64,000 nucleotides of DNA, from assembly GCA_963693365.1 (NCBI GenBank), contig CAVNZM010000003.1, positions 6,042,509 through 6,106,508 on the forward strand, written 5' to 3'. This document shows, one piece after another, positions 1,874 to 56,957 of the stretch (its first letter is position 1; the number at the start of each line of letters is the position of its first letter). The position numbers and the translations under genes are program-made. This stretch comes from Amoebidium appalachense (lineage: Eukaryota > Protista > Ichthyosporea). The notes beneath the pieces were generated by a model. It ran no database searches. It saw only the letters and a list, made by a program, of their open reading frames with translations, and was not told the origin of the DNA.

Positions 1874-1918
<45 letters not shown>

Positions 1919-3952: not shown

Positions 3953-3964
3953 ACTTGTCAGACT

Positions 3965-5188: not shown

Positions 5189-5211
5189 CGCAACATTTGC
5201 TTACAGCGCCG

Positions 5212-5421: not shown

Positions 5422-5845
5422 CAGGCTGGTGTCAATCGAAGACATGGAGAGCTGGAGACATGGAGAGCTACTGGCCCCGTTTCAAGTGAAAACGAGTCCG
5501 GTGGAGGAGGTTATAAGCTGTAGCCCGACCGGGAGGGGCTCCTTTTATTCAATATAAACGGTCCTGGACAGGGCGAACAGGGTCAATCCCTGTTCTCTAG
5601 AAATTTCGGAGACATTGTAACCGTGTGCCACGGTGTTCTCTTGGCTTTCGGGAGACATGGTGGGTACCGGGTGGGTACCGGCGCGGCTATTCTCTATGAA
5701 ATGACGGGCCAATCGTTCACAGAAGCCGCCGCGTTCTCTCTGGTTTGTGCAGAAATCGTTGGACTGAGTAGCGGGTGGTAGGCAGGAGAACAGGGTGCAC
5801 GCCCCTCGTCCCGTAACACGAGCGCACATTTTTAAGGCTTCACGC

Positions 5846-7579: not shown

Positions 7580-7745
7580 GGTTGCCAAAGACCATTGTAG
7601 CCGTCAGCCAAAGCCCTCCCGATTCTGCGGTGGGGCCTGCGGGGCTGGGGGGGGCTGGGAGGGGCGCCTGTGGCACACGTGCCTCGCGTGCCTCGCATGC
7701 CTCTCATGCCTCGCAAGCCCTGCGCGCCCCTCCCAGCCACCCGGG

Positions 7746-8042
7746 CTAGTGTCGGGTCCGATTCGGGCTCCCCGGTTCTTTGGTGTGCTGCTGCATGTGC
7801 CGCTTGAGGCTCAAGGCATACCGAAACTGCCGTCCGCACCCCGCATGCGCGCACACGTGCCGCAGAATCCCCGCATGCCTGTCGCTGTGCGCCGCAAAGT
7901 TGCTGTTGCGGGTGGTGGAGTAGCCGCAACCGTCGACTGTGCACCGATACACCTTGTACTCCTTGACCATGACTGGGCCTAGCTCAGACCTGCACGTGCA
8001 TGGAAACATTATGTTACTGAAGGAACGGAAAATATTTTCCAT
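7746..8042 (-). CDS. small protein with two C2H2 zinc fingers
   Basis: YRCTVDGCGYSTTRNSNFAAHSDRH and HVCAHAGCGRQFRYALSLKRHMQQH. Alternative ATG at 7970. Confidence 0.8.
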   Translation of the reverse strand: MENIFRSFSNIMFPCTCRSELGPVMVKEYKVYRCTVDGCGYSTTRNSNFAAHSDRHAGILRHVCAHAGCGRQFRYALSLKRHMQQHTKEPGSPNRTRH

Positions 8043-8234
8043 GGTCACGGACTCTGTCACTGCAGGTCGCTGCTGATTTGCCTGAGGGGCTGATGGTGGG
8101 TGACCTGTCTCCCTTGCTCCGCAGGCCCGCACGCAGGTATATAAGCACGCACCCGACCGGTTCCGGTCACAGTCTTGATCTTTGCTTCGAGTGTGACAGG
8201 CGACGACGAGAAAATATTTTCTATACAACCTGTA

Positions 8235-9668: not shown

Positions 9669-9686
9669 ACACCATGACGGTGCTAA

Positions 9687-9946
9687 TAGACACATAGACA
9701 GCTAGACACTTGACCCCGTACCTGTGGTAGGATGCCCCATGGACACCATTTGTATAGTAGGAATCGGATATTTTTACTCTTCCCCCCGACCGCCAATCCT
9801 GCTGTCTATGTGTCTATCTGTCTATGAACTCCTTATTTCATATATGTATTAACTATATTTATATATAAAAATGTATAGACACATACTAGTCACAAGCATT
9901 CCTCTAGACAGATCCGCTAGACAGGTCCATAGACACCTTCTAGACA
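9687..9946. promoter_or_regulatory. iteron-like TAGACA array around an AT-rich core (candidate replication origin)
   Basis: TAGACA at 9687, 9695, 9703, 9876, 9905, 9918, 9930, 9941; inverted TGTCTA at 9803, 9811, 9819; AT-rich 9833-9875. Confidence 0.6.
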
Positions 9947-10024
9947 CCATCGAAAAATGTCAACCGGGCAACCAACTCGTCTGAAGTCCGCCTGGTGCGG
10001 CCCAGGAATAAAAATTACAAACTT

Positions 10025-10057
<33 letters not shown>

Positions 10058-10058
<1 letters not shown>

Positions 10059-10312
10059 TACCACCTGTACACCAGCAGGCCAGCGAGCAGCACGAGCAGT
10101 ACCATGCATGCAAGCGCTATGCCCCTCCACATCGAAGCCCTCTTGAGCTGTGCATCATGGTCGTCCAATGAAGTGCCCATGTAGAGCATGAAGCGCGTGT
10201 TGTTGTCGATGGTCAGGTGGTACTCGTGCGGGTCGGCGGCAATGTCATCCCTGCGCACCCACGAGTTACTCGGGTTGTCAAATCTCAGGTTTGCAATGTT
10301 CGGAGAAGTCAT
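10058..10312 (-). CDS. small protein with C-terminal transmembrane anchor
   Basis: 84 aa ending GIALACMVLLVLLAGLLVYRW. Confidence 0.55.
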
Positions 10313-10392
10313 ACCTTCCGAAGAGATAGTTTGGAGCGCCCCCTCCCCAGCAACTCGGGGAGCACACACAGAGATTATGCATCGCAGTGCTA

Positions 10393-11326
10393 ATGGAACC
10401 TAAAAACCGCTGGGACGTAGGGCGCGCCAAGACGGAGGACGCACTGACGAGGTACATGGACAGGGTGTGCTCGGGTGAGGATCCGGAAGGAACATGGTGG
10501 TTTCTTCGATGGGGGGGGCTTCAGATGGCGGTTCCTGTAGTAATAGCAGGACCGCACATCGAACTTTGGAGTCTTCAAATCCAACACATAACGCGCGTAA
10601 AGGCCTCGGATTATGAGGTACCGTACAACTCCAACCCTCCCACTACCAACACAACCCGCAGCAGCCCACACATCTATGATATCTACAAGAGCGAGGATTA
10701 TGAGAGTCCGGACAACCCTCACCCCGCTGCCGACACGACCCTTAGTCCCTACGTCTATGAAATCTACATTTTCAGCCAGCCCAGAACTGAGTTGTTTCCC
10801 TATGATAATTTCTTCCATGAAAATTACAGCCGTCAAACCCCTCAAGACATTATTAAACAGACCAGGGACGGTTGGGTCTTTTGGAATGCATACGGGAATC
10901 CCGACCTGGACGAGGCCAAAAACACAGCGCCCGGTGTCTCGAGGAGGCCCTACTGGTTTATGCCCGAACTGCTCTTTGAGACCCTTGTCAAAGAACCGCC
11001 CCTGACCAAACCTCGGACCCTGCTCGAGTCAGCCTACCGCGCCGGAGTGTCGCACGGCGCGCCCACCACCATGGCCCCGGGCGGCGCAACCACCGAGGAC
11101 CTGAGCACAGCACTTGAAGATTGGGGTGAGCGCTGGCTTGACTATTTTTTCAAAGAGGTCGGCCAGCGTGGTGGAGGCAGCAGGGCTGCCGCTGCGCGAG
11201 GGTGTCTTTGACAGAGCCTACGGGCGCAACCGCAACCAGGAGTTCGAGGGGGTGGGTGCGGATTTTGATGAGTGGAACGAGGGGACCCCCTGGAGCAACG
11301 CGGGCAATTTGGGACATGCCTTATAG
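10393..11326 (+). CDS. hypothetical protein (ORF to 11211, possible frameshifted tail to 11326)
   Basis: Long intronless ORF with an internal repeat DYE.P....P...TT.SP..Y.IY. Confidence 0.55.
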
Positions 11327-11516
11327 CAAAAAATCTTAAACATTTTCGGGGTGAATATACAATGTAAATCCAACGATCCAAATATGGTAAAATTACATAC
11401 CCCCCCCCCCCCCCCCCCTCTGAGCGCCAGCACGCGGCAAGCAGCACGAGCAGCACCATGCATGCAAGCGCTACGGTCCACAACACAGGTGTGGAAGAGG
11501 AAGTGGCAATTTTTAT

Positions 11517-11951
11517 TTACTCCTCGTGTCCAGCACGGCTGCGCTTCTCGGTGGGCGCCGAAGTGTCCTCGGGCGACCGCGCGCGCTTCTTCTCGGGGGG
11601 CTTCTTGTCGAGGCGCTCCTCCTCGGAGCTCAAGATGCAAATGGGGCGCTCCTCGGCGGGGGACTCCTCGGCGGAGGACTCCTCGGGGTCGCTGAGGTTC
11701 TTCAGGGTCCTCCATGTCATACGGTACAGGCTCACGCTGGTCTTGAGGCGCTGGTACTTCTTGCGCAGCACCTTGTACTTGAGCTGCATCTCCCGCTCGC
11801 TGGCGCGCGCACGGTAGCGGTCGCGCTTTGCCTCCTCGTACATGTACTGCTGCCATTCGGGAGGCCACGTGGCAAATGACCCTGGGGGCCGTGGACGGGC
11901 AGGCTGCCCGGCTGGGTCAGGGCCGGCCTTTGGAGATGGTGTGCCGGACAT
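11517..11951 (-). CDS. basic coiled-coil (bZIP-like) nuclear protein
   Basis: AKRDRYRARASERE then heptads M-L-L-Y; KKRAR NLS-like motif; TATA GGTATAAAA on minus strand at 12008-12016. Confidence 0.6.
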   Translation of the reverse strand: MSGTPSPKAGPDPAGQPARPRPPGSFATWPPEWQQYMYEEAKRDRYRARASEREMQLKYKVLRKKYQRLKTSVSLYRMTWRTLKNLSDPEESSAEESPAEERPICILSSEEERLDKKPPEKKRARSPEDTSAPTEKRSRAGHEE

Positions 11952-12675
11952 TGTTGGTGAAGAGAAACAGGAAGAGTGGAAAGTGTCAGCATAGCGCTGA
12001 GTCGGCATTTTATACCTGCCAGGCAGGGAGGCTGACAGCTATCGCGTTTTGATTGGATGTAACCTTTGTCCAACAGTATCCTTCTTGCTCAATGACAAAC
12101 AAACAGAGAATATCTGTGTTTAGACTATGCGTCATGCTAGCATGCATGCTAGTTAATTAAGAGGTATTTAGAATGCTCACGAAATGTAATTTCGGTTTAT
12201 TTGAGCTTAGTGGAAGTTCCATATCACCAAAGATACTGTTCAGAAAAGATCTATAATAGCTGCAACTTTTTCCACGGGTCGGGGCAATCATGACTAAGAT
12301 CAAAATTGGCTGTCAGATCGGATATGCAAATCTACCAATCAAATTAATTATCGCGGGGCTCACTTCAATGCTGTCAGAATTTTGCGAACCAATCACATTA
12401 GCTCAACCTAGATCAATCCATCCCTGCCAACCAATCAGCGCGAGAATTGATCTCCAATCAAATGGCGCTGTGGACATGCCATACCAGTCCCTTCTGAAAA
12501 CTGATCCTACATAAAAGACCAACACAAGGCCAATCCTGTCACTTTCACGCTTTCACACATTCTCCCTCACAACGACTCCCGGCCAAACGATTGTTGCCAG
12601 ACATTTCACCACGTCCCTCTTTCTCGCCCTTTCTTAGCGGATCGTTTCATTAGACCCCCCCCCCCCCCCCCCCCG

Positions 12676-13535: not shown

Positions 13536-14288
13536 GTACTCCCGGCTAGCAATGTCTGTTAGAGAAAGTTTCTGAGCAATTGAATAACTGTTTCAACACT
13601 CACTCGAGTGCATAGAGCTTTTGTTTACGGTCATATTCATATATGGTAGTTATATGTTTGAGCCAAAACTGTACCAATGACGAGCTTCACTAGCAACGTG
13701 CTAATTGTGCTCATTAATTAATATTCCCGGTTCAGATGATGTCATGTCTATATTTGCCACAGGATTCTATTCTTAGAGTGGTAGTGTGCTTTATTCCCGG
13801 ATATTCTCAGAATATTTTTAGTTGTGTGAAGCAAGATTTACGTTTAACTGCAATTGGTGTGTTAAACACGTTTATTTGTGTGCTTTAGTGCAAGTTAACT
13901 AGCCACTCAACGTGCACAGTTAACTTTTATATCTTTAACGACTTGTTTTCATTGTGCTCTCTTTTCGGCCATGCTGTACATGGCCCACCACCAGGGTGCA
14001 CACGAGGCCACCATGAGGTGGCCAACGACTATATAAAGCAGTGCCTCATGGCATGTCACAAACATGGGAAGCAGAACGTTTGATTTACACTTTTCTACTG
14101 TCGTTTCCAGTGCACAAAACACATAGACTAGTTACCCATCATACACGACACTATGTCTGACAACTTACAGTTGCAGCAACTAGTCCAACTACTGGAGCAG
14201 AGGTTGGCCTCACAAGATGCAATCATTTCTGACTTACAGAAGGAACAACGTGCACTAGAACTAGCTTCTATGAACACAATGTCCAACA
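13536..14288 (+). repeat. 5' LTR lacking its first 15 nt
   Basis: Matches the 3' LTR from GTACTCCCGG onward; TATATAAA near 14030; one small indel near 14048. Confidence 0.95.
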
Positions 14289-15361
14289 GGGTTATGGGCC
14301 CCTCACGTAATGATTCCATCAAGTTCAAGGTCGACATCCCTCTCCTCACTGGCATTGATAATGATTCAGGCACGGACTACCACACATGGGCCGAAACCAT
14401 GTATGTCCAGCTTTCTGGTGCTGGTCTTCTCCACACCATCGCGCCCAGTACGGAGCACCCGGCTACCCGTGAACAGGTCGACACTGCCCGTTCCTACCTG
14501 TGGCAAGCACTCTCGGTTGACGTGCGTTGTATCCTAGGGTTAACACGCACCACCACACCTGCGGAGATATGGTCGGCCCTATCTGCCCACTACCTGGAGC
14601 AATCTGAGGCCAATCAGTACGACCTTATCGGGCTGTACATGAATTCTACGCCTGAACCTACGGACACCGCGACGAAATACGCCATGGAACTCCGCGGCTA
14701 CGTGCGGCGCCTGGCCGATTACGGCACACAAATTGGTGATGCTCAAGTGCTGACCAAGCTCACCAACGACCTCGGCAAGGTGCCTTACTACGAAATGCCT
14801 GTAATTGCCTACAAGATGACACCCAAGCCTACCGTGATGGGCCTCCTCCAACAGCTACGGGCATATGAGACCAGCCACCCACGTGCACGTGTGACTACCA
14901 GCTCCGGGCCGGCCGCCTTCACCACACGGGCTCCTCAACCTGTCATCTGCCACGGCTGCGGCAAACCAGGCCACATCAAGTCTCAGTGCCCCAACGGCAA
15001 CGGCCAACACAGCAACTCTGGCAACAACCGTGCCAGCACCTACCCCAAGGGTTCCTGCGTCAACCACCCACTGTCTACCAGTCACACTACCGCCATGTGC
15101 AAGGGGGGCAACCGTGCCAACGGCCGCAAACCTAAGGGTGGTCCCCTCCCGCCTGGGTCCTGCATCAACCACCCTGCCTCTACTACCCACACTACGGCAC
15201 AGTGCAAGGGGGGGCTGCCGCTCCCCGGGCTTTCCTCATGTCTAGCAACGACTGTGGCACCAACAAGGTGCTCCTCGACTCTGGAGCCACTGACCATGTG
15301 TGCCCCCGGCCCGATGTGTTCATCAACATGCGTGCGGCGCCTTACTCCACGGTCCAAGTAG
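14153..15361 (+). CDS. gag: copia Gag, starting inside the LTR
   Basis: Zinc knuckle CHGCGKPGHIKSQC plus two C-x2-H-x5-H-x4-C repeats. Confidence 0.9.
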   Translation: MSDNLQLQQLVQLLEQRLASQDAIISDLQKEQRALELASMNTMSNRVMGPSRNDSIKFKVDIPLLTGIDNDSGTDYHTWAETMYVQLSGAGLLHTIAPSTEHPATREQVDTARSYLWQALSVDVRCILGLTRTTTPAEIWSALSAHYLEQSEANQYDLIGLYMNSTPEPTDTATKYAMELRGYVRRLADYGTQIGDAQVLTKLTNDLGKVPYYEMPVIAYKMTPKPTVMGLLQQLRAYETSHPRARVTTSSGPAAFTTRAPQPVICHGCGKPGHIKSQCPNGNGQHSNSGNNRASTYPKGSCVNHPLSTSHTTAMCKGGNRANGRKPKGGPLPPGSCINHPASTTHTTAQCKGGLPLPGLSSCLATTVAPTRCSSTLEPLTMCAPGPMCSSTCVRRLTPRSK

Positions 15362-18300
15362 CCGACAAGGGTGCATGTGCAGTGCTTGGGGTGGGCGACG
15401 TGTTCTTTTCCAGCACCATCGACGGCGTTACTGCGGTGCATCAGCTGACGGATGTACTCTACGTGCCCTCCATCCCCGACACTCTCATCAGTGTGTTCAC
15501 GGCAACTACCAACGGTGTTTTACCCCGCTTTGACACCCGCGGCGGCGTTAAGTTGTGCTACGGCGATCAAATTCTGGCCACCGGCTCGGCTGTCGGCACC
15601 AAGCTGTACCACATGGCGGTGTCTCTTCTGCGCGCGGACACAACCCCGGACGCCCAAACCACCACTGCTCCGCGTATCCTCAAGGTTACTGCCGACCTCA
15701 ACACGTGGCACTACCGTCTGGGCCATGCTGGCATTGACGCTGTACGCTCGGTCATCAAGTCTGCAGGCCTGTTGGTGGGTGGCGGTGCCAAGTCTCCGGG
15801 TGTGTGTGAGCCCTGTGCCCTCGGCAAAGCCCACCGTGTTGCCTTCTCCGAATCAACTAGCCAAGCTCCCCGGGTCCTAGCCAAGGTTCACAGCGACATC
15901 AGCGGCCCCTTCCCTCCCGCGATCGGTGGTGCTCAGTACTTGGCGACGTTCCACGACGAATTCACCGGCCACACCACGGCCGTGCCCCTCGTCAAGAAGT
16001 CGGACACACTGGCTGCATATGTGACGTACCACAAGGCGGCGGTTACCCAACACGGTGTTCCCATGCAGGTGTTTCAGTCCGACGGGGGGGGCGAGTACAT
16101 GGGCACGGCCTTCGGGGACTACAACCGTGAGCATGGCATTCGCCATCAGATCACTACCACCGGCTCTCCTCAACAGAATGGGACTGCCGAACGACTGAAC
16201 CGGACCCTCCTCGACATGGTTCGGGCACTCCTGCAGCAGTCCGGCCTTCCGGTGGGATTCTGGGCCGAGGCAGCTGTGACCGCGGCTTTTATACGCAACA
16301 TGCTCCCGTCGCGAGCCACCGGCAGCCAATCGTCTCCCGCCCTGCTGTGGACCGGCATTCCTCCCGACTACAGCCGGCTCCGTGTCTGGGGCTCTCCCTG
16401 CTACGTCCATCAACAGGATACACCAAAACTGGCGCCTCGTGCCGTCAAGGGCATCTTCGTGGGCTACCCTCCTAACATCAAGGGCTACAAGGTCTGGATT
16501 CCAGCAGCACACAAGATGACCGTCAGCCGTGACGTGCAGTTCGACGAGGCTGCTATTCTGCACCCCCTCCGTGATGTCCCATCTGATTGGTCGACCGCAC
16601 CGGCAATTCATCATTTTTTGGAGTCATCTGATTCGTCAAATCAGCCAGCCAATCACATCGTCCGGAATGATCAGCAATCTGATTCGTCTCGTCTGTCAGC
16701 CAATGGGACAGCGCCGAGTGATCAATTGGACATTCCGATCCTGCCCGAGCCTGCACATCGGCTCCCCCGGACGACCCGTAGTGGCGCTGTGTACAACGAC
16801 CAACGTCGAGGCCCGACTGCCAACGTGGCTGCTGCTACGGCCCCCCTTGCCCCCCAGGCTACGGCTCCTGCATCAACACCCATCAAGGCTTCCACCATTG
16901 TTGTCCCCAAGACTGTCCGGGCTGCACTCAAGAGTCCCCAGCGTCTGAAATGGGAGGAGGCTGCACACCGTGAGCTCAAGGCCCTGGAAGACAACGGCAC
17001 CTTCACCCTTGTGCCCCGTCCAGAGGATGGCTCCACTGTCATTCCGGTCGGCTGGGTCTTTACGGTCAAGCAGGACAACGTCGGCAACGTCACTGCTTTC
17101 AAGGCCCGGCTTGTGGCCCGGGGCAACTACCAGCAGCCTGGCCAGGACTATTTCGTCACCGAGTCACCTGTGGCTGCGCTGGCTACCATCCGGCTGGTTT
17201 TGGCTACCTCCGTGGCCCAAGGTCTGCCTCTGCGCCACATCGACGTCAACACAGCATTCCTCAACGGCACCGTCAACGAGACCATCTACATTGAGCAGCC
17301 CCCTGGCTTCGTCAACCCCTCGGCCCCCCATGCTGTCGGCTTGCTCCACAAGGCGCTCTACGGCCTAAAACAGGCACCGCGCCAGTGGTATGAGGCCCTC
17401 CGTGACCATCTCCTCGACCAAGGCTTCATTGTGAGTGCTGCTGACCCGTGCCTGTTCATCAAGAATGCCGGGACCCCAACGTTTATTGCCCTTGCTGCCT
17501 ACGTGGATGACTTCACCGTGACGGCCGCCACTGATGCGCTCATCGACGATTTTTTCACCAAGCTGGATGCTCGTTTCTCTGCCAAGGACCTGGGTCGTCC
17601 TACCCTGCTCATCGGGCACACTCTTACCTGGCTGGAGGACGGGTCTCTGCGTCTGGGCCATCGTCAACACATCATCGACTTGGCTGCCCGTTTTCGTCTC
17701 ACCCACATGTCCGGCACCAAGACCCCCATCGTCCCGGGCCAGGCCAGTGAAAGCAACAAGACCCCAGCCTACAGCAAGAAGGAGGACTATGCCAGCCTGG
17801 TCGGTGCCCTGCTGTGGATTGCGCGTACCACCCGCCCCGACATTTCCCAGGCTCTGGGAGTCCTTACTCGACACATTCATGCGCCCACCGTCACCCACTG
17901 GACTATGGCTACCAGAGTTGTAAGCTACCTGCTGGCCACCATCGACCTGGGTATTGTCTACCGTCCCGGCCCCCCCAACCTTGTTGGCTACTCCGACTCC
18001 GACTACGCCGAGGACCGCGACACCCGGCGCTCCACCACGGGCTATGTCTTCTTCATCAACTCCTCCCCTGTGTCCTGGGTGTCTCGGCTCCAGTCCATCA
18101 CCACCCACAGCTCCACTGAGGCTGAATTTGTGGCCATGTCTGCTGCTACGAACGAGGCCCTATGGCTCAACTATGTGATGGACGACCTGGGCCTTAATCC
18201 TATCAATGAGCCCACCCCGGTGCCCATCCATGGGGACAATGAGTCTGCCCGGGCCCTGCTGGACACCCTGGGGGTTAAGCCCAAGACCAAGCACATCGAC

Positions 18301-18450
18301 GTCCGCTACTGCTCCGTCAAGGAACATCACCTGCTGGGCAACATCACTGTGGTCCCGGTGGCTTCTGCTGACAACAAGGCCGACATGTTCACCAAGGCCC
18401 TGTCTGCCTCCTTCTTCACCAAGGCCGTGGGGATGCTCAACATGTGCTGA
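15202..18450 (+). CDS. pol: copia Pol (protease, integrase, RT, RNase H), -1 frame relative to gag
   Basis: LDSGATDH; WHYRLGH..CEPC; HSDISGP, QSDGGGEY, QQNGTAER; YVDD; YSDSDYA. Confidence 0.95.
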   Translation: MQGGAAAPRAFLMSSNDCGTNKVLLDSGATDHVCPRPDVFINMRAAPYSTVQVADKGACAVLGVGDVFFSSTIDGVTAVHQLTDVLYVPSIPDTLISVFTATTNGVLPRFDTRGGVKLCYGDQILATGSAVGTKLYHMAVSLLRADTTPDAQTTTAPRILKVTADLNTWHYRLGHAGIDAVRSVIKSAGLLVGGGAKSPGVCEPCALGKAHRVAFSESTSQAPRVLAKVHSDISGPFPPAIGGAQYLATFHDEFTGHTTAVPLVKKSDTLAAYVTYHKAAVTQHGVPMQVFQSDGGGEYMGTAFGDYNREHGIRHQITTTGSPQQNGTAERLNRTLLDMVRALLQQSGLPVGFWAEAAVTAAFIRNMLPSRATGSQSSPALLWTGIPPDYSRLRVWGSPCYVHQQDTPKLAPRAVKGIFVGYPPNIKGYKVWIPAAHKMTVSRDVQFDEAAILHPLRDVPSDWSTAPAIHHFLESSDSSNQPANHIVRNDQQSDSSRLSANGTAPSDQLDIPILPEPAHRLPRTTRSGAVYNDQRRGPTANVAAATAPLAPQATAPASTPIKASTIVVPKTVRAALKSPQRLKWEEAAHRELKALEDNGTFTLVPRPEDGSTVIPVGWVFTVKQDNVGNVTAFKARLVARGNYQQPGQDYFVTESPVAALATIRLVLATSVAQGLPLRHIDVNTAFLNGTVNETIYIEQPPGFVNPSAPHAVGLLHKALYGLKQAPRQWYEALRDHLLDQGFIVSAADPCLFIKNAGTPTFIALAAYVDDFTVTAATDALIDDFFTKLDARFSAKDLGRPTLLIGHTLTWLEDGSLRLGHRQHIIDLAARFRLTHMSGTKTPIVPGQASESNKTPAYSKKEDYASLVGALLWIARTTRPDISQALGVLTRHIHAPTVTHWTMATRVVSYLLATIDLGIVYRPGPPNLVGYSDSDYAEDRDTRRSTTGYVFFINSSPVSWVSRLQSITTHSSTEAEFVAMSAATNEALWLNYVMDDLGLNPINEPTPVPIHGDNESARALLDTLGVKPKTKHIDVRYCSVKEHHLLGNITVVPVASADNKADMFTKALSASFFTKAVGMLNMC

Positions 18451-18636
18451 GCACCCGTCATCAACCAACTGCGCCCTCATACTTCAGGGGGGGGGAGAGA
18501 GTTGCATCCGACTGTGCAACTACGTGTACCATACTAAAATTGAGTAGGGGAATCTTTATTGTCTGTATTTTGTGCACCTGAAGCACTCGAGCTCAGTTGC
18601 ATTAATTCATACCACAATTATCCAATTGAGTAGGGG

Positions 18637-19401
18637 TGTTGGAGTACACTGGTACTCCCGGCTAGCAATGTCTGTTAGAGAAAGTTTCTGAGCAATTGAA
18701 TAACTGTTTCAACACTCACTCGAGTGCATAGAGCTTTTGTTTACGGTCATATTCATATATGGTAGTTATATGTTTGAGCCAAAACTGTACCAATGACGAG
18801 CTTCACTAGCAACGTGCTAATTGTGCTCATTAATTAATATTCCCGGTTCAGATGATGTCATGTCTATATTTGCCACAGGATTCTATTCTTAGAGTGGTAG
18901 TGTGCTTTATTCCCGGATATTCTCAGAATATTTTTAGTTGTGTGAAGCAAGATTTACGTTTAACTGCAATTGGTGTGTTAAACACGTTTATTTGTGTGCT
19001 TTAGTGCAAGTTAACTAGCCACTCAACGTGCACAGTTAACTTTTATATCTTTAACGACTTGTTTTCATTGTGCTCTCTTTTCGGCCATGCTGTACATGGC
19101 CCACCACCAGGGTGCACACGAGGCCACCATGAGGTGGCCAACGACTATATAAAGCAGTGCCTCCCATGTCACAAACATGGGAAGCAGAACGTTTGATTTA
19201 CACTTTTCTACTGTCGTTTCCAGTGCACAAAACACATAGACTAGTTACCCATCATACACGACACTATGTCTGACAACTTACAGTTGCAGCAACTAGTCCA
19301 ACTACTGGAGCAGAGGTTGGCCTCACAAGATGCAATCATTTCTGACTTACAGAAGGAACAACGTGCACTAGAACTAGCTTCTATGAACACAATGTCCAAC
19401 A
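18637..19401 (+). repeat. 3' LTR (765 bp)
   Basis: TGTTGGA...TCCAACA immediately after the PPT. Confidence 0.97.
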
Positions 19402-23335: not shown

Positions 23336-32517
<9,182 letters not shown>

Positions 32518-34895: not shown

Positions 34896-35840
34896 GAGAG
34901 GCCATGAAGATGTCGAGCATGACCCCAAGAGACACGCGCCCAGCAAGTAGTGTGTTCGGTGTGGGGTTTTTGGTGTCCTTTTTTGTCGTGCATTGTGTGT
35001 GGGGGGGTGTTTAGTTTATTTTTGTTATGATTGTGATGAACGGGACGGCAATATATATTTTATAGTTCTGATTTAGATATTTTTGTTATGATTGTGAATA
35101 ACAGGACGGCAATAAATATTTTCGTTGTATACTATGTGCCATTCCGTCTTTCTCGACACAAAAACTACTCCGGGACGTGTGTTGCCTCTAGGGGGACATC
35201 CCCTTGGACGAAAGTGAACCTGCAATGGTTGTAAACCACGGCAAGCCCCCAGTCATCAATTTATTGATCCGTGAGGTCCATGTGCCCAAAAAACGGGGGA
35301 AGTCTTCGCCCCGTGAAAAAACAGCACGTATGTGTGGATCAATGGGGGTTGTGTGTGGGTGTAGGTGGGTGGGTGAAAAGGAATATATAGCTGTAAGGCT
35401 GTGGATGCTAAACACAGAAGATGTGTTTGTAGCTTGCTGATCTGCTAAAAACTGTCGTGCTTATATACCTAAGCCTACCGATCTGAGCCAATCAAAAATC
35501 GATCTAGTGATATGTGAAATCTAATCCGAGCCAATCATAACTCGGTCTAGTGATCTGTGGTATCTGATGTTTTGACTGGCTAATAGGTGCCCGTGTGCGG
35601 GCAGCCAACCGCTAACTGCTAAAACACGAAATGAAGCCTACATGGCTATGTTGGTATCGAACACCCATCCTACGTGTTTACCCAGAAAAATATTTATGTC
35701 AATAATTTCCACAAATAAAACCTCTATGAAAAACTACTCCGGGACGTGTGTTGCCTCTAGGGGGACATCCCCTTGGACGAAAGTGAACCTGCAATGGTTG
35801 TAAACCACGGCACGAGAGCAGTATGCTTGCTCCAAAGGTT

Positions 35841-36872
35841 TCACTTAAGAATAGAGGCGAATACACGTGTGGTGGTGGCAGCAATGAAGGCCGGACGAAG
35901 TCGGGTATAGATCAGGAAGCAGTCGGAGGACCACCGGCCGAGTTGTTTGATCCGGGAGTCGTCGACCCCGGCCTCAGCCAGTGCTGTGGCCCCCCCGATG
36001 CGGAGGCTGTGTCCGGCAAACCGGGAGGGTGAGAGGCCTGCCCGGGAGAGGAGGGCACGGAAATCGGCAGAGAAAGCACTCTTGGTGTAGGGGATGCCAC
36101 CGAGACTGAAGAGGGGGTCGTCGGGTTGACCGGACGTTGTATCCAGGAACTGCCGGAGGAGATGGGCTGGGGAGAAGTGGGTGAGGGGCAGGGCAGCTAG
36201 GGTGACGTTGACACCTCGGGCCTGTACATCCGTTTTAGAGGTTGGCAGGTGGAGGGTGGCATGGGACAAAGTACCGGTGGGGGTGTAGCTGAAGGTCACG
36301 TCCTTCCGTTTAACGTGACGGGACGGGTCGAAAGAAGTCAGGGTCTTGGAGGTAAATTCCCCTGAACGGAGGAGACCACAGAAACCGACGATGAGGGCCG
36401 TCCATAGCCGGAGATTGGCCGAGGAGGCCTTGGTGGGGCACTGGCCGTGGAGTAGGCGGAGGTGGGAGGGGAGGAGGGGTTCCCTGGTGGATGAGCGGGG
36501 TCGGATGTTGTGAGAAAGCTGCCATCGGCCTACCCCCCGTAGGAACCAGGCCAGAGACTTGTCGTGGGGGTAGGGAGCAGGGAGGCCCATGTCGAGGTGG
36601 AGCCTGGTGATGGCCGAATTGTAGCCGGTTAAGGAAGAGGCCTGTACCCCTCGTTGGGCGCACCAGGCGAGAAAAAGTTGCACGGTGTGTGGGGAGGCCG
36701 GGAGGGAGGACCCGGAGGAGGATTGCAGCCGAGATGCCACACAGAAATCGATGAACACTTTTTGCACCCGGGAGTAAAAGGCCCGAGAGTCGAGGTTGAG
36801 ACTCAGGGCCTGGCATTCCTGCAGGGTAGTGGTGGCTCGAAGCAGCTCGGCCGGAGCAAAGTGGGGGGCCAA
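35841..36872 (-). CDS. tyrosine recombinase
   Basis: LLRSGEF, SKTD, GHSLRIGGAT and LGRWSSDCFLIY give the full catalytic set. Confidence 0.93.
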   Translation of the reverse strand: MAPHFAPAELLRATTTLQECQALSLNLDSRAFYSRVQKVFIDFCVASRLQSSSGSSLPASPHTVQLFLAWCAQRGVQASSLTGYNSAITRLHLDMGLPAPYPHDKSLAWFLRGVGRWQLSHNIRPRSSTREPLLPSHLRLLHGQCPTKASSANLRLWTALIVGFCGLLRSGEFTSKTLTSFDPSRHVKRKDVTFSYTPTGTLSHATLHLPTSKTDVQARGVNVTLAALPLTHFSPAHLLRQFLDTTSGQPDDPLFSLGGIPYTKSAFSADFRALLSRAGLSPSRFAGHSLRIGGATALAEAGVDDSRIKQLGRWSSDCFLIYTRLRPAFIAATTTRVFASILK

Positions 36873-36926
36873 TCTGCCAGTGTTGCTCCGGAACGGGAGA
36901 TCTGGGGGGGGGGGGGGGGGGGGGGT

Positions 36927-38609
36927 TTAGCCCAAGGGAAGGGATAGGAACTCGTGGACCCAGGAGGGGAAGGGGCAGGGCTCCGGTTGCAGGGAAGGTC
37001 GGAGTCGTCGGGCCCGGGGAAGTTGGTTACGAGAAATGGCATCGGCCAGATGGTTGAGGGGTCCTGGTAGGTAGGATGCCTGTAACGTGAATTGGTATTG
37101 CATTTCCATGCGGGTGATGAACCGAATAAGTTTGGCCATCACGGGGTGGGGGGAAGACCGGGAGTGCAGGTCAGACACAGCACCCGTGTTGTCGCATAAA
37201 ATACGGACATGGTGGGTGTACCAGGAGGGGGCCCAGAGGGCCACGGCGGCTGCGATGGCCAGGAGTTCGATGACGGAAGAACCGAGTTTACCCTCATGAG
37301 CATAGAGGGCTTGGGTGGAGGGGGACCAGGGCATGAAGAACCATTGGTCGAGCCAGTGGCCACCTAGACCCACCGATCCGGCAGCATCAGTGGCCAGGGT
37401 GGTGTATGTGGGGGGTGTGATGAGGTGCACCCCATTCCATGATGTGAGGAACTGGTGCCATTCGGCTATGTCGGCCCGGGCGGCAGCAGTCAGTCGTATG
37501 TGGTGGTGGCCGGCAAGGTGTGGGTGGGTCCGGAGAAGGGCCCAGAGGCGCTGGGAGAAGGCCCTCCCGGGGGGAACCAGCTGGGCACACCAGGTGAGTT
37601 TGCCGAGGAGGGACTGGAGGTCCCAAATGGTGATGGTGGGCTTTGGGTGGGAAGTGAGGTCGAGTAGGTCCGAGAGCTTGGAAGCCGGGATTCGTGCCTC
37701 CATGGCGATGGAGTCGAATTCGATACCGATGAAGACGACACGGGTAGCCGGGACCTGCATCTTGTCTTCGGAGATGGCAATGTGCAGCTCTCGGCAGAGT
37801 TGCAGGAAGGTGGATAGGTGACGTTGGCACTGCTGTTGTGTGGGGGCGACTATAATCCAGTCGTCTACGTAGTGGCGGATGAGGGTAATACCGTGCTGGT
37901 GTGCCAGCCACTGTAGGGTGGCCGCGATCCGTTCCCAGATGGCTGGGCTAGATTTCAGGCCGAAGGGCAGTCTGGTTTCAACGTAAAAATGCCCTTGCCA
38001 TTTGAATGCCATTAAGTGGTGGTCTTCCGGTCGGATGGGCATGTGCCGGAAGGCAGCCTGCACATCTGCCACGGCCATGTAGCAGCCGGGGCCTGCGTCG
38101 AGAATGAGTTGGGTGACATCCCGGGCGCGAATGTACTGAAGTTCGTCGGGGTAGGTGATGCTGTCATTGACACTGCTACCCCGGGGCCAGGAGAGGTGGT
38201 GGATTCGACGGTACTTGGGGGGGTTCCCTTTCTTGGTAACGGCGCCGATGGGGGAGGAACGGTGGACGGGAAATTCGTCAAAGAATTGGGCCGGGGAGAG
38301 GGGGCCGCGCAGGTGGCCGAGGGCGACTTCTTTGGCAATATCCACCGTGATAGCGGCAGCTGCCTCCGGGGTGGTGGGTAGGTTGGGGCCCACCCGAGAG
38401 GTGGAGGGGCCGCGATAGCCGATGTCGACGCCGAATTCGACATCGTGGAGGAGTTGTGCGGCGAATGGTTGGTCCGGGTAGGAGGCCAGCAGTTCCCGGA
38501 GGCGGGAGGTGTCAATGTGGTGCTGGGGCAGCGGGCGGGCCTCCGGGTCTGAGCCTCGGGGGAAGGGGTGGTTAGCAAGGGTGGTGTGCCCTTGGGGAGA
38601 TCCCGGCAG

Positions 38610-38674
<65 letters not shown>

Positions 38675-38789
38675 CGGGGCCCCGGGGGGTTAGAGTAGGG
38701 CAGCTTGGCCCAAGTGAGGGTTGGCAGGGAGGGCAGCGGGGCCCTGTGCAGGGGAATGTGCCCGAGCACGCGGGGGTGTGGGCGGACAC
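36927..38789 (-). CDS. pol: DIRS/Ngaro RT-RNase H (5' end uncertain)
   Basis: YRRIHHLS, LPFGLKSSP, HYVDDW; RNase H TDAAG, IELLAI, CDN, NHLADAISR. Confidence 0.92.
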
Positions 38790-39064
38790 AGCGGTAGAAG
38801 AAGGGGGGGGAGGGAGTGCTAGGTGAGTGTAAGGGGGGGGGGAGGCTCGTGGGATGGGGGGGGGAGTAAAATTATGTGCAGTGGCCAGAATAAACGTCTT
38901 TGTATAGGGACATTTATTCTTGACGCGCGCGGGCGCCGTAGTTGGCCTGCGAAATTTTGTACTCAGCCCTATTGGCCCGTTCTCCCGAGCTCCGTTTCCC
39001 TGTACTCGTGTGTCCTAGCTCCGAACCCCTATGTTCTAGCTGTGTGTGTGGGTGTGCGCGTAGA

Positions 39065-40234
39065 CTAGGCATTGTGCTTGCAGTCTTTGCGGGGGTGTGT
39101 GCCAGAGCAGAGCGGGCACACGTGGGAGAAGGGGCAGGGCTGCTTAGCGCAGGACCGACCGTTAATGTGGAAATTCCTGCAGTGCGTCGCATGTAGATCC
39201 ACGGGTCGGGCCGGTTTTGCCGGGCCGGGTTGCGGGCCAGGGCGGTTAGGGGTGTGACCCCCGCCGGGCTTGTGGGGCGGCTTAAAGCCGTCAAGACCAC
39301 AGCCGGGCTTGGGGTACATGGGGCAGGCCGCGCTGGGGTGGTCGGGGAAGCCACAGCGCTGACATGCGTCCTGGATGAGCAGGGTGGGTGGCAGGAGGAG
39401 ATCCTGGTGGAGTTGGGCGAGCAGGTTGGGGCACTCGATCGGAGCCCGACCCTGCTGGTGGGCCACGGTGCGGGCGTATACGTCATAGTTGTGAATCTGG
39501 GCCCACGGGTATCGGGTGCTGAGGCGAGTGATGTGCTGAGTCCAAAGTACGTCTTTGTCCGTGGGAAGGCCGAGGTGGTGCTTGGCGGCCATGTAATGGG
39601 TCCAAGCTTGGATCCAAATGACGAGTGAACGCAGGGGAACGGGTTTGTCTTGGCGAAAAGTCTCGATGCTGCCGTCGTCGGCCATGCGCAGATGCTGACC
39701 TTTCTTGGATGGGGCCAGGAGGGCGGCGGGGGTGAACTTATACAGGTCGACGAAACGATTGGCGCGCAAATCTGCCAGCACATCCGCGGGGGGAAGCGGG
39801 AGTGTGCCCGGCTGAATGTCGCCAGTGTTCTCACCTGTGATGGGGGGCGCGGGCAGGGCAGGCAGGTCAAGGTCAGGGCCGAGATGCAGCCCCGGGGAAA
39901 CCTCCCCGGGTGTGGAGGGCGCGGAGGGGGGCGCGGGAGGGTCGCGGTTGGTGAGAGCAGCCAGGACGCCAGCCATCTGGGTGCTGATGGCGGTGAGGGC
40001 GGCCAGGACGGCGTCTTGAGAAGTCATCTGCGGGGACGGCGGGGCCTGAGGGGGGACTTCAGGGGTGGAGGGGAGAGTCGCCGGCGGGTCCGGGTCCGTG
40101 GTGGTATGGGCCGCTGGAGGCGCGTCAGTGTCCGCGGGAGCGTTGGTCAGCCTGTGGCGGAGGTCGCTGCGGGTCAGGCGCTTAGGTGCCGCGGCAGGGG
40201 CGGCGGCTGAGGCCTGGCGCTTTTTCGGCGGCAT
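39065..40234 (-). CDS. gag: Ngaro Gag-like ORF1
   Basis: FVDLYKF..WIQAW..W...YD; zinc motifs CQRCGFPDHPSAAC and CRNF..C..C..HVCPLCSGTHPRKDC. Confidence 0.85.
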   Translation of the reverse strand: MPPKKRQASAAAPAAAPKRLTRSDLRHRLTNAPADTDAPPAAHTTTDPDPPATLPSTPEVPPQAPPSPQMTSQDAVLAALTAISTQMAGVLAALTNRDPPAPPSAPSTPGEVSPGLHLGPDLDLPALPAPPITGENTGDIQPGTLPLPPADVLADLRANRFVDLYKFTPAALLAPSKKGQHLRMADDGSIETFRQDKPVPLRSLVIWIQAWTHYMAAKHHLGLPTDKDVLWTQHITRLSTRYPWAQIHNYDVYARTVAHQQGRAPIECPNLLAQLHQDLLLPPTLLIQDACQRCGFPDHPSAACPMYPKPGCGLDGFKPPHKPGGGHTPNRPGPQPGPAKPARPVDLHATHCRNFHINGRSCAKQPCPFSHVCPLCSGTHPRKDCKHNA

Positions 40235-40573
40235 GCTGACCGGCGTAGGGAAAGATAGGGAGAATGAAAAGGAATGAAAAGGAATATATAGCTGTAAGGC
40301 TGTGGATGCTAAACACAGAAGATGTGTTTGTAGCTTGCTTCTCTATTTCTATGTGAAATCTAATCCGAGCCAATCATAACTCGGTCTAGTGATCTGTGGT
40401 ATCTGATGTTTTGACTGGCTAATAGGTGCCCGTGTGCGGGCAGCCAACCGCTAACTGCTAAAACACGAAATGAAGCCTACATGGCTATGTTGGTATCGAA
40501 CACCCATCCTACGTGGTTACCCAGAAAAATATTTATGTCAATAATTTCCACAAATAAAACCTCGACACAAAAA

Positions 40574-42871: not shown

Positions 42872-44886
42872 TACTTCTTGGTTGGTCTCGGTATCGTCGC
42901 TCTGTCGGGCCGACTTGCGCTTTGGGGACGGGGACTCCTCGCCGCGCTTGCCGGACAACTTGGTCTTCGACTTCTTGACTGTCAGCGCCGCCTCCTCTTC
43001 ATCACTGGTGGATGCCCGCCGCTTAAGTCTCGCCAGCTCCTGCTCCATCTCCGAAACTTGCCCTTTGAGGTGCTGCACTTCGTCCACAACTTGGGGGTGC
43101 TGAATAATGCCAACGGCGCCAGACTCAGCCCCGTATGCGGGCTTCCGATCAACCTGGGGAAAAAAGAGGGTAGAAATGTCAGCATTTACTGCTGACACTT
43201 TTATGTGAAAACGGCATTCGAACAACGAAAACAAGGAAGAGTTAACGTGAAACGAAAAAGAAACATGGATGGTGCAAAAGGGTACACAACAAGATATAAA
43301 GGGTATTACAAAAGGTAACAATGGATATCAACAAGGTGTAGATATGTTATCAGCATGTTATCCTATGGTGACATTCGTTTACCAATGTAAGCAACGTGAT
43401 ACACTTTGAATGACAAAAAAAAGAAAGTAATTTATTTCTCACCAGTACTGCGCAGGTCGGTGGCGAGACGGTAACGGTCAACGTCCAGAACAAACCAATC
43501 TTTGCACCCACACAAACGAAGCTTCGGGAAAAGAGAGAGAACGGCAGGAGAACCATAGTTGGAGGCAACAGCATAGTTTGGTTCCAAGTTAAACCCAAAA
43601 TGAAGTGTGTGTGGTGTCACAAACACCAGGTCTCCGGGTTTCTGCACAATGAACGTGTACTCTATCTTTAACTCGTCGAGCATGTCGAGTGAGAGAGGGA
43701 TTGTTTTTGTGCAGGAGAACACTTGTGCAGTGTGTGTACTTTGTGAGTTTATGCATCTGCCTAGTGATCTTTAAAAACGCATCCTTTTCACAAATAACCC
43801 AAAACTTTGGTCCCCCAGACAAGAGCAAGTTATGTGCACCCAAGCCACTGTCTTCTATATGCATGCAAAAAAAGGTTGCAAGCAACTTCCCAGCCTGACC
43901 CCGAAACAAAGCATGCATGTACGCCCAAGGGCTGTTAACACCAGGAATCTCCTCCCCGTAGAACTGAACACCCAGAGGAGAAATATCACACACTTGATTG
44001 AATGAAGGGGGACAAGAGGCCTTAGAAACAGAAACGTCTGCAAGATACGCACCACCAGAGTTTTCTACAGCATACTTGTACAAAGCCTTAAAAGCATCCC
44101 TACTCATATCTATTGGGAAGTCGTACTTGGAGGTGTATGCTTTCGTTTGGCAAAAGTCTACGTGTTTGTTTTTCCTTACGACCTCACCCCAACCGTTGGA
44201 GGACACGACTGAGTGAACCTTCCCATTTGCAAAAAGAGATGCAGGTATGCATGCAAGTGCATCTCCCATGGAAATGGGTTCACAAAACCCACGAATAACA
44301 CCACCCAACTTCCCATCATTCTCAATTCCATAAAAAAATGAAAGTGCAGCAGCTGGTGTGAGCATTGTGCCTTGTGAACAGGAAAGTGTGAGGGTAAACT
44401 GGGAAGGGGAAAGGGAAAGAAAAGCAAAAACAAAAAACAAACAAATAAAAAATAAAAAAATGATACTCGAGAATACAAGCTCGAGGGAAAGTGACAACAA
44501 CGAACCGTGGAACGTCGGCTTATGCGGTGGAACTAACTATGTGGGAGGGCACAGCACACGGACCAAAAAAAGGGAAAAGAAAACATACCTTGGGGTCTGG
44601 CATTGAACGTTCTGGCGACGTAGGCGCCGAGCAGGCCCTTGCCCCTTTGGCCGTCACCGTGTCGCTGGCTGAACTCCTTCTGCGCCTCTAGCGCAGCCTT
44701 CCTCGAGGGCGGAAGGGCATCGTCCACGCTCTCGCTCGACGACGACTCGGAGTTAGAGCCGAAGGAGGGTTCTCTCTCTTTCCTTTTTTTATCTTTCCCA
44801 TTCACGAACTTTTGTTTCTTTCTCCCTTGCTTTGCAGCTTCCTCTGCAGCCGCTGCGGCCTTTGCCTGCTTTTCCTTTTTCCCCAT
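42872..44886 (-). CDS. second KDM4-like JmjC gene (one frameshift in an A run; 3' exons uncertain)
   Basis: Exons 44886-44589, 44532-44506, 44370-43443, probably 43152-42872. IPGVNSPWAY, FCMHIEDSGLGAHN..GPKFW, QKPGDLVFVTPHTLHFGFN, CGC. Extra base at 43704-43708. Confidence 0.82.
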
Positions 44887-45605
44887 GCTTGCTGTCACGC
44901 GGCGATCGGCCACACAGTCGTAACAAAGCCAACAAAATGATACGTTTTGGTAACATAGTGTGTCCCAAAAACCGACAAGGAATGTGGTCGCGTGTCCTAG
45001 CATTTGTTTGATTGGCTTACGTTTACGGCCACATTCTAGAGGGAGGCAAACAAAGTGTGTTCTCGTTTGGGTTTAAGAAAAAACAAACAAAACCGTGGTA
45101 TATCAATCGTTTAGATTACATCACCAGCCATATATGTAAAATATTCGTATTGAGCTAATGCAATACTGTATTTTTCTAACACATTATAAAAAAAACCAAA
45201 CCATGAGTAAGCCAAATGACGAGCTGCCCAATGATGGTTTTTACTTGCTCAACCAATCAGTATCGTCGCATGGGCACAAAACAAACTTGCTCTCCAACGG
45301 GCGGCACGGGCCGCTCGGGCCATTAGCTGGAAGAGAAAGAAGGAAGAAACCGCTATTAATTACATACCTATTCTCAAAATATAATGCCAAAAATATTAAA
45401 GTAATAGTCTCTTCAACCATAATGAAGGCTAATTAAGAACATATGATTGTTTAACTTCGTCTATTTATGCTGATGGCGGCCGCCGCGATTAATAGCTCAT
45501 CCAATCAGTATCGCGGCATTGGCAAAAAAAAATTACCAGTGCACGTGATATTTAAAGAAAAAACCTGATCTATATGAAACATACTTTAATTCTTCATAAC
45601 TTAAG

Positions 45606-45644
<39 letters not shown>

Positions 45645-45774
45645 CATTTAATAACTTGCAACTTGGTGAATTCAAATATGACAACTTTAAAGCAATCGCA
45701 AAAGCGAACCTATCACATGGCCCACATGGCAGCACAGTATGATCACGCGGGGGGGGGGGGGGGGGGGGGGGGAC

Positions 45775-45858
<84 letters not shown>

Positions 45859-45893
45859 CTACAGTATATCAGCTGCAGGGTGGCCGCCCATAA

Positions 45894-45939
<46 letters not shown>

Positions 45940-46201
45940 ATCAGTGTATACATAAGTGGTAACCGATTAAATACCTCATGTATCGCCACGTATAAACGTC
46001 CTGGTAACATCGTACAAATTTTTTATTTGTGTGTATTCCGTTGTGGTACCCCGGGATGCCATAACTTTTGGATTTTGTCCTGGTGCAGAGACTAGCGATC
46101 TTGCTAGCCTTGAGATCACAACCTAACCACTGCCGATGGTTGTGATGACGCCAGTAAAGGCGTGCTGGCTTTACCCCAGCGAGAAGAGGATGAGAAAAAG
46201 A

Positions 46202-46274
46202 TGATCCCGACGGGATTTGAACCCGCGACCCCTCTATCTCCGGTCGAGTGCTCTACCAACTGAGCTACGAGATC
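46202..46274 (-). tRNA. tRNA-like gene, GGA at the anticodon position, short variable loop (tRNA-Phe-like body)
   Basis: Acceptor GATCTCG/CGGGATC; D arm GCTC-AGTTGGTA-GAGC; T arm GCGGG-TTCAAAT-CCCGT; TTTTT terminator just downstream. Confidence 0.75.
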
Positions 46275-46554
46275 GGTTAGATCTCGAGGCCACCAGCCGA
46301 CATGATCTGATTCATGCGATCGGACTGGATAACGATACCATCTTCCAACATCCCCACTCAGGACGAATCGCAGAATCAGGTTAGGGTGGACTGCCCCCTC
46401 AGTCCCCTCTGAACCTCTGTTCATGCACCATTTGATTTGTCCTGTGCAGAGAAGCGATCTCTAGCCTGAGATCACAACCTAACCACTGCCGAGGTTGTAT
46501 GACGCCAGTAAAGGCGTGCTGGCTTACCCCAGCGAGAAGAGGATGAGAAAAAGA

Positions 46555-46626
46555 TGATCCCGACGGGATTTGAACCCGCGACCCCTCTATCTCCGGTCGA
46601 GTGCTCTACCAACTGAGCACGAGATC
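46555..46626 (-). tRNA. second copy of the tRNA-like cassette (1-nt deletion)
   Basis: Same sequence in the 5' LTR. Confidence 0.65.
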
Positions 46627-47037
46627 GGTTAAGATCTCGCAGGCCACCAGCCGACCATGATCTGATTCATGCGATCGGACTGGATAACGATACCATCTTC
46701 CAACAATAACCCCGGGCATGTAGATCGATACTCAAATTTCGTGCTTCCACCCTACCCTCCCCCCCCCCCCCCCCCCCCCCCCCCATTGGGGTATATCATT
46801 CCAGACCCAATATACCACACTTTCCCCTCTCCCCCTTGCCTAAAACATGCCTCCCATCCACACACCACCCAGTAGCCCCCCAACACAACATGCTTATTGG
46901 GCGCTTACCTCGCGCATATCACCCCCCCCCCTACGTGGGTAAATTTGGATATATCTCCTGAACCAAAACCGGCAACCCGTTCCGGACGGTTCTGTTGCAT
47001 CCCCCAGGCGGGCACACGGCTTTGTGTATGCCCACAG

Positions 47038-47072
<35 letters not shown>

Positions 47073-47571
47073 CCCTTCCCCAACACATGCCTCCCATCCA
47101 CACACCACCCAGACCCCCCCCCTACACAACGTGTTTATTGGACGCACACACCGCATTTCCGCGTAAAGAAACTCATCTAAATACATATCAAAGTGAGTAC
47201 ACATCACGATAAAAACGAATACCAAACATATCAAATGTGTCCAATCATAACACGTATATTAATAGACAGGAATGCATATCACGATCTATACTGATGTACT
47301 CACCGCGTCTATTGGTGAGTCATCCTACTTTGAACCAAAAACAATAATAAAAACAAAGACATTGAATATAGTTAGCCAATCACACTACTCTCAGAAAAAA
47401 AGAAGAGAGCAAACTCAGATAAAATGCAATAAGTCCTATCAGGCAAGGGAGCCAGGTGTGCACAGATCTTCAAATATCCGTGCACACAGCTGAAACAAGG
47501 ATCCCGGGATCAGGCAAGGGAGTCAGGTGTGCACAGATCTACAGATATCCGTGCACACAGACACAAGGATC

Positions 47572-47621
<50 letters not shown>

Positions 47622-47763
47622 AGAGCAGAAGGGAGAGAAGAGGGAGAGCACAAAGAAGAAGAGCAGACACGAATACAAAAAGGCTAAGACACACACACAT
47701 ACTTCAAGACTCTTGCTGTACTACGTAGTAACGTATTCCAACAGTGTGTGTGTGTGTGTGTTT

Positions 47764-47794
<31 letters not shown>

Positions 47795-48139
47795 GGGCTG
47801 AGGGGGCCCTGGCGGGGTGGGGGGGGGGTGTGGGGGTGAAGGTAGCTGTACGCCACAGTATGGGGTAAAAAGTATGATATGACGTCATGTCTGTCAGCGT
47901 GTATGGTAGTGTACGGTATGGGTGTGTGTGTGTGCGTGTGCGTGGGTGTGTGTATGTGTATCAGTGTCACCGTGAGAGTTCAGGTTCAAGGTACATGATA
48001 CACAGGTTGTCACACAACTTCGTTTGTCCACGCGTACACACTACTTCTCGCATAGACTACTAGTAGTATGCAGCATTATTTTAGTTACTCAAGTATGTGT
48101 ATTAAAGCTTAGCTTAGTAGTATTGCAGGGCAAACAAAG

Positions 48140-56957
<8,818 letters not shown>

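Follow-up and report, generated by a model that had tools for sequence, protein, structure and literature searches.

The element analysed here occupies positions 46066-46705 (640 bp, minus strand) of the window, the 64-kb stretch of DNA that was studied as a whole. It lies between two copies of ATAAC, at 46061-46065 and 46706-46710, and such a match of flanking 5-mers has a chance probability of about 0.001. CCCGGG flanked the target site on both sides (46049-46716), so that the empty site is a short repeat in itself.

The window was compared with public runs. Part of the stretch was contained in 20 of the 24 listed rows; five studies were named, and seven rows had no named study. Four runs (X1, X2, X6 and X16) were compared as assembled contigs only, and one listed row may be the window's own source.

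Two copias were present elsewhere in the window. The 3' end of copia-1 (437-3107) had its reverse transcriptase (RT; Pfam RVT_2) and RNase H divided between two frames around 1285-1630, followed by a 530-bp 3' UTR and an LTR (2400-3107) that was very deep in X1 and X2. Its anticodon-loop primer-binding site (PBS), as seen in the runs, was possibly of the tRNA-Tyr type, and X6 held a solo-LTR contig of it. In copia-2 (13536-19401), the LTRs were 99.5% identical, the 5' LTR lacked its first 15 bases, gag started inside the LTR, gag and pol lay in different frames, and the PBS was of the half-tRNA iMet kind.

A tyrosine-recombinase retroelement (35160-40563) carried RT, a phage integrase and a gag-like ORF, with split direct repeats at 35503-35724/40342-40563 and 35160-35243/35729-35812. 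From its layout we take it to be Ngaro-like. Intron-poor virus-like genes occupied 2964-12038, with a repeat-rich fibre-like ORF (3965-5200), an aminotransferase class III ORF (5768-7579) and a DUF5906 primase/helicase-like ORF (8145-9668).

Pieces of JmjC-like genes and of a fragmented Plavaka transposase were found at 23655-24125, 26909-27289, 43589-44536 and 48113-56957. The Plavaka match was at E 5e-20, and the JmjC match was weak, below the Pfam cut-off. The JmjC-like gene at 43589-45072 shares the element's strand. Upstream of it are two 44-nt repeats with CCAATCAG boxes (45241-45532) and, at a distance of about 1 kb, the element itself. No close named relative emerged from protein searches with the window genes; the best matches, both partial, reached 46% and 47%, and JmjC had none. 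The mixture of Plavaka, JmjC, DUF5906 and tyrosine recombinase resembles that described for an ichthyosporean in passages of PMC11244446; Plavaka is also listed for fungi and algae. That the host is a unicellular holozoan is a guess, somewhat more probable than not.

Anatomy of the element

The initial annotation had described a non-coding element of 640 bp, with two LTRs of about 280 bp and an 80-bp core holding a PBS and a polypurine tract (PPT), and the LTR alignment agreed with this. The 5' LTR spanned 46431-46705 (minus strand; 275 bp in the window, its deletions being likely sequencing errors), as judged by LTR alignment and the runs. The 3' LTR spanned 46066-46350 (minus strand; 285 bp, 289 bp in the runs), starting with TGTTGGA and ending with TCCAAAA. 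Their alignment gave 272 identities, no substitutions and 16 gap columns. U3 was only about 80 nt long.

The non-coding core (46351-46430, minus strand; 80 bp, 81 in the runs) carried the PBS at one end (46419-46430, minus strand), with the start TGGTAGCA in the runs, and the PPT, TGAGTGGGGA, at the other (46351-46360, minus strand). The AA end of the LTR, noted earlier in place of the usual CA, is real, as the runs joined it straight to the PBS, to both target-site duplications (TSDs) and to other flanks. With two LTRs, no protein coding and 640 bp (659 in the runs), below about 1 kb, the element is a TRIM. No further copy was found in the 64-kb window, and similarity to the LTR or core elsewhere in it was not above chance.

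Each LTR contained a tRNA-like unit, and both Rfam tRNA matches were in the same sense as the element. The unit in the 3' LTR (46202-46274, minus strand; 57.4 bits) had A and B boxes, a 7-bp acceptor stem and a supporting fold, and it alone was called by ARAGORN, as Ser-GGA. The unit in the 5' LTR (46555-46626, minus strand; 49.2 bits) has one base missing in the window. Two bases after each unit was a T5 run resembling a Pol III terminator (46195-46199 and 46548-46552, both minus strand), the sole run of four or more T on the sense strand of each LTR.

A full cloverleaf with A and B boxes and T5 had been claimed for each LTR. The units, the boxes and the T5 runs held up in the Rfam matches, but the fold was not canonical: the anticodon stem had a G.A mismatch, position 33 was C, and the GGA anticodon was not accompanied by a long variable arm. 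U33 is invariant in tRNAs, and serine tRNAs carry a long variable arm. C33, the G.A mismatch and the short arm do not agree with a functional tRNA-Ser gene. The tRNA-like RNA is predicted to be non-decoding from its C33, its mismatched anticodon stem and an arm that is wrong for its anticodon. The acceptor stem was complete (7 bp) and the A and B boxes were intact, although the anticodon arm had drifted.

Across 45000-48000, no Rfam match up to E=1 was found to 5S rRNA, the hallmark of Cassandra and Ajax, or to a ribozyme (the hallmark of retrozymes being a hammerhead in the LTR). A tRNA-derived SINE, which is a single unit with a 3' tail and a TSD of variable length, was ruled out by the LTR pair, the PBS, the PPT and the fixed 5-bp TSDs.

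Relation to Helenus and proposed transcription

The initial annotation knew of no tRNA-bearing equivalent of this design. One has in fact been published: Helenus, or TRIMp3, comprises TRIMs of fungi, animals and Selaginella whose LTRs hold sequence derived from a tRNA (Kojima 2024, PMC10886601). Fungal and plant Helenus have a 5-bp TSD, and the fungal ones are tied to Copia, while animal Helenus have a 4-bp TSD, are tied to Gypsy and use Gypsy-type primers (PMC10886601).

The element had tRNA-derived sequence with an A box (TRGCY, YGG) and a B box (GGTTC) in its LTRs, as aligned by Rfam, and a core bounded by PBS and PPT, the identity of the primer tRNA being deduced from likeness. Judged by its sequence, it is a new family of the published Helenus kind, showing every sequence feature that defines the group and following the fungal pattern. 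The earlier picture, in which each LTR of a TRIM bears a Pol III cassette of tRNA origin, thus stood, with several copies and differing 5-bp TSDs in its support; its novelty as a design did not. It had also been asked whether the family was already catalogued. The kind is, as Helenus, but the family itself was not found in Data S1 of PMC10886601, where three family-specific words gave no match (line breaks can hide matches). Our literature searches found no report of such elements in unicellular holozoans, and no experimental work following up Helenus in the passages of PMC12859917 available.

The likeness to fungal Helenus of rust and agaric fungi (Helenus-5_PSt, -3_PTrit, -10_CroRib and -1_CCin) extended to a TRIM of less than 1 kb with a 5-bp TSD, a sense tRNA-like unit and T run per LTR, PBS and PPT only, an LTR start of TGTT and an anticodon discordant with isotype. 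The first eight core bases were identical to those of seven fungal families. Unlike most of these, the element has a longer, structured U5 of 140 nt after the tRNA-like unit. Its TG...AA ends also differ, one listed consensus having TA...AA. Judged by repeat content, its host is not among the species listed for Helenus.

The closest tRNA-like parts seen were those of oyster Helenus-1_SaGl, -2_SaGl and -2C_CGi, in the entries available (49 of 57-58 core positions, counted by eye). A common origin with oyster Helenus was not supported once phage tRNAs served as background, because these reached 81-83% to the same query, compared with 84-86% (by eye) for the oyster units. Membership of the kind does not depend on common descent, several origins being proposed in PMC10886601. 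Cassandra of plants and Ajax of nemerteans are also TRIMs with a piece of a Pol III gene per LTR, but that piece is derived from 5S rRNA (type 1 promoter) and not from a tRNA. Cassandra is transcribed from the 5' LTR to the 3' LTR (PMC10886601).

We consider it probable that the element is a non-coding mini-retrotransposon of Helenus design, in which the tRNA-like unit likely serves as an internal Pol III promoter and the proteins of a Copia likely do the copying and insertion. Pol III would initiate immediately ahead of the 5' unit. Some transcripts would be terminated by the first T5, which would act as a leaky terminator, and yield a short tRNA-like RNA; the remainder would continue across U5, core and U3 as far as the second T5 or past it, making an RNA of roughly 450 nt. 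The tRNA-like unit would then form the terminal redundancy (R) at both ends of the genomic RNA. The 3' end of the host initiator tRNA-Met would prime at TGGTAGCA, the PPT would prime the second strand, and a Copia integrase would insert the DNA with a 5-bp duplication.

According to passages of PMC4937561, yeast Pol III frequently reads through short T runs and needs more than six for an efficient stop, and T4 is reported to be sufficient for human Pol III. The T5 in the 5' LTR could therefore stop most transcripts. For Cassandra, transcripts running through the LTRs are described in the available part of PMC7215508.

The predicted U5 region (46066-46195, minus strand) folded into four hairpins with z = -4.18, and none of 200 shuffles was as good. 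The folds of U3 and core were not better than shuffles (z -0.73 and -0.14). This contrast fits an RNA whose start is the tRNA-like unit, and a role of U5 in packaging. The loops of the first two U5 hairpins were complementary over five bases and their stems could swap partners; from this model, the pair is a possible kissing pair or switch. The third loop contained GATC.

Could the element instead be an ordinary TRIM driven by Pol II, its tRNA-like unit being a passenger that stems from an old SINE or tRNA insertion and plays no part in replication? A T5 right after the unit would shorten a Pol III genomic RNA, and among the several origins of Helenus, SINE insertion has been proposed; Pol III transcription is expected for Helenus, with no experimental demonstration in any family (PMC10886601). 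We regard such a passenger as unlikely, given the intact A and B boxes and full 7-bp acceptor stem beside a drifted anticodon arm, the U3 of only about 80 nt, and a layout that is identical in more than 100 fungal families in the supplement parts available.

Primer site, LTR ends and the helper

The PBS start, TGGTAGCA, is the start used by fungal Helenus primed by the 3' end of iMet. We take the PBS to be of this type from the likeness to fungal Helenus and from the usual 3' ends of iMet. The 5-bp TSD, the iMet-type PBS and the non-CA end make dependence on a Copia plausible, and by this analogy it is our best guess.

In lotus, non-CA LTR ends are mostly a Copia trait, and TGAA is absent from the eight Copia ends tabulated (PMC9804982, in part). 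A TGAA end is listed once, for an annelid, in the available passages of PMC8220671, and the fungal consensus Helenus-1_PCor ends in AA in the part of PMC10886601 available. The TG...AA end is thus rare and not unique. Since the motif list of LTR_retriever, as quoted in a passage of PMC8220671, does not hold TG...AA, elements of this kind are easily missed.

The initial annotation had a copia mobilise the element, and pointed to the PPT of the copia at 2391 and to the LTR start of the copia at 18637. Mobilisation by a copia remains plausible on the grounds given above; the two copias named have other primer sites and CA ends. The PPT match extended to an identity of 13 nt over the PPT/LTR junction of copia-1, and lost weight, as 12 of these 13 nt recur inside copia-1's own coding region at 1752. 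TGTTGGA is indeed common to the element and copia-2, and this says little, because the motif occurs 17 times across the window, where 7.8 would be expected.

The LTR of copia-1 (2400-3107) ends in CA and is followed by GGTTTACGGCCC in X1 and X16, and that of copia-2 ends in CA and is followed by the PBS GGTTATGGGCCC. Both are anticodon-loop primer sites, of a kind described in PMC10886601. An end of the copia-1 LTR at TGAAA near 2960 had been considered, and was rejected in favour of CA at 3107. Reading position 33 of the host iMet from the copia-2 PBS was dropped, as a rust-fungus Helenus, in the supplement parts available, has the identical PBS.

That copia-1 or copia-2 is itself the helper is quite unlikely. 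The junction identity, the 7-nt LTR start and the presence of one copy of the element inside the 3' UTR of copia-1 (see below) would favour it. Yet a search for an autonomous Copia with the element's PBS found both of the window's two copias to differ, the LTRs of both end in CA, and neither LTR nor core resembled other parts of the window more than chance would allow. As both copias use other primer sites, neither is supported, and another Copia is the likely helper.

Copies, mobility and probable errors in the window copy

An empty site was found in two of the four runs compared. In X1 and X2, which came from two studies, a contig joined 46060 to 46706, with five letters that fit either side, so that ATAAC was present there as a single copy. 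The perfect 5-bp TSD described earlier was borne out on both sides of the element. No filled site at 46061-46710 was listed in the four runs compared.

A second insertion was recognized from loose contig ends in the 3' UTR of copia-1, at the target site ATCAC (2163-2167, plus strand), which is empty in the window. Flanks in X1 and X2 matched the window from 2163 on, and a flank in X16 matched it up to 2167, where the first 30 bases of the element sat behind 2167; the overlap was ATCAC. The two flanks came from different runs, and we assigned them to one insertion because they share the site. The element is thus multi-copy, with two 5-bp TSDs (ATAAC and ATCAC), each with an empty site, as in fungal and plant Helenus. 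The earlier suggestion to look for copies with different TSDs was answered by this.

More distinct flanks were seen in loose contig ends at 46064/46066 and 46704. In X2, the single LTR contigs were at about 52-53 times and the core contig at about 25 times the depth of the empty-site contig; in X1, two LTR difference rows were at about 16-18 times. These depths are rough and are no copy numbers. The element is multi-copy and recently mobile. Loose ends in X1 and X2 also showed variant core and U3 sequences, suggesting subfamilies.

The runs differed from the window by four extra bases in the 3' LTR, presence of the tRNA base that the window's 5' LTR lacks, one substitution and one extra base in the PBS. 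Base 9 of the tRNA-like unit, lacking in the 5' copy of the window, and the PBS base were both present in the runs, from which the family unit was taken to be 289+81 bp and the full element 659 bp, with the PBS start given above. The core joined an intact LTR end in X2, X6 and X16, and X6 and X16 each held one contig of 400 bases that fits a 370-base unit of LTR and core. This suggested that sequencing errors are the likely cause of the indel-only differences, among them the 16 gap columns of the LTR alignment, in a copy that is absent from X1 and X2. The true LTRs of the window copy are probably identical.

A joint from 46426 to 46066 represents collapsed LTRs and gives no support for tandem arrays. 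Bins 46444-46499 had almost no cover in the four runs, which by itself proves nothing. Exact-pattern scans of metagenome contigs and viral contigs gave no match to the element, and no RNA run was among the listed rows matching the stretch. X6, which was picked by its match to this stretch, is only guessed to be RNA and was seen as contigs only, held one contig across LTR and core; on a control stretch it held a copia LTR alone.

The LTRs might be kept for the benefit of the host, as a working tRNA, a source of regulatory small RNA or chromatin barriers. A complete cloverleaf with terminator, and the short T5-terminated RNA expected as a by-product, are in line with this. It is nevertheless very unlikely: C33, the G.A mismatch and a GGA anticodon with no serine arm do not suit such a role, most Helenus units are predicted to be non-functional (PMC10886601), and the site was empty in two of the four runs compared, which makes the window copy dispensable. 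An assembly artefact or one-off duplication, to which the indels absent from the runs and the lack of a listed filled site at the locus might point, can practically be dismissed, since the 5-bp duplication is exact, its empty site was seen independently, copies are numerous and another TSD exists.

The anticodon-loop palindrome and its possible role

Positions 32-35 of the tRNA-like unit are CCGG (46240-46243, minus strand), a palindrome that opens the anticodon loop and puts C33 in place of the invariant U33. Fungal Helenus LTRs were inspected by eye for a 4-base palindrome from the first or second loop base, as counted without structural alignment. In the supplement parts available, 106 of the 116 LTRs, from related families, opened the loop with one (25/26, 25/26, 29/31, 24/30 and 3/3 by part), compared with a chance expectation of about 12%. 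Three of the ten exceptions had CTGG, which can pair with itself in RNA through G.U.

Six spellings occurred in these fungal entries (CTAG, CATG, GTAC, ACGT, CCGG and ATAT), several of which break U33. Selaginella Helenus had ACCGGT in the loop, sister oyster families had CTAG and CCGG respectively, and Helenus-1_SaGl of oyster had CCGG as in this element. Many fish, mussel and wasp families in the same available parts had no loop palindrome (no tally was made).

In tRNAs with AGN anticodons, CTAG arises naturally. The independent palindrome switches among the related families may number no more than a handful. The predicted duplexes are weak except for CCGG (-4.9 kcal/mol, versus about -1.5 for the other four-base palindromes). 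The text of PMC10886601 makes no mention of palindromes, dimers or self-complementarity, and our literature search found no paper on dimer palindromes in such elements.

The genomic RNA of Ty1, which is of Copia type, is packaged as a dimer that is started by loop-loop (kissing) pairing, according to the abstract of PMC5454406. In Ty1, two complementary hairpin loops of 7 nt in the mRNA pair; here, the loop would be that of a tRNA-like anticodon arm. By analogy, we tentatively propose, as something possible rather than probable, that in Copia-dependent Helenus the anticodon loop may have become a self-complementary kissing loop, through which the genomic RNA would dimerise and so be packaged by the helper Gag. 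If so, the tRNA piece would serve at once as promoter, as terminal repeat and as signal for dimerisation. Packaging by helpers was left open in the Helenus paper (PMC10886601), and the proposal, if true, would make it possible to test directly how LTR elements devoid of genes are packaged by helpers with no LTR sequence in common.

LTRs that bear tRNA sequence also inflate counts of tRNA genes. With this element, a group that is known from consensus sequences alone and has never been tested at the bench gains a family that moved recently and has presence/absence sites. The family would also exemplify Helenus that is still mobile in a lineage not yet listed for the group; this may be a unicellular relative of animals.
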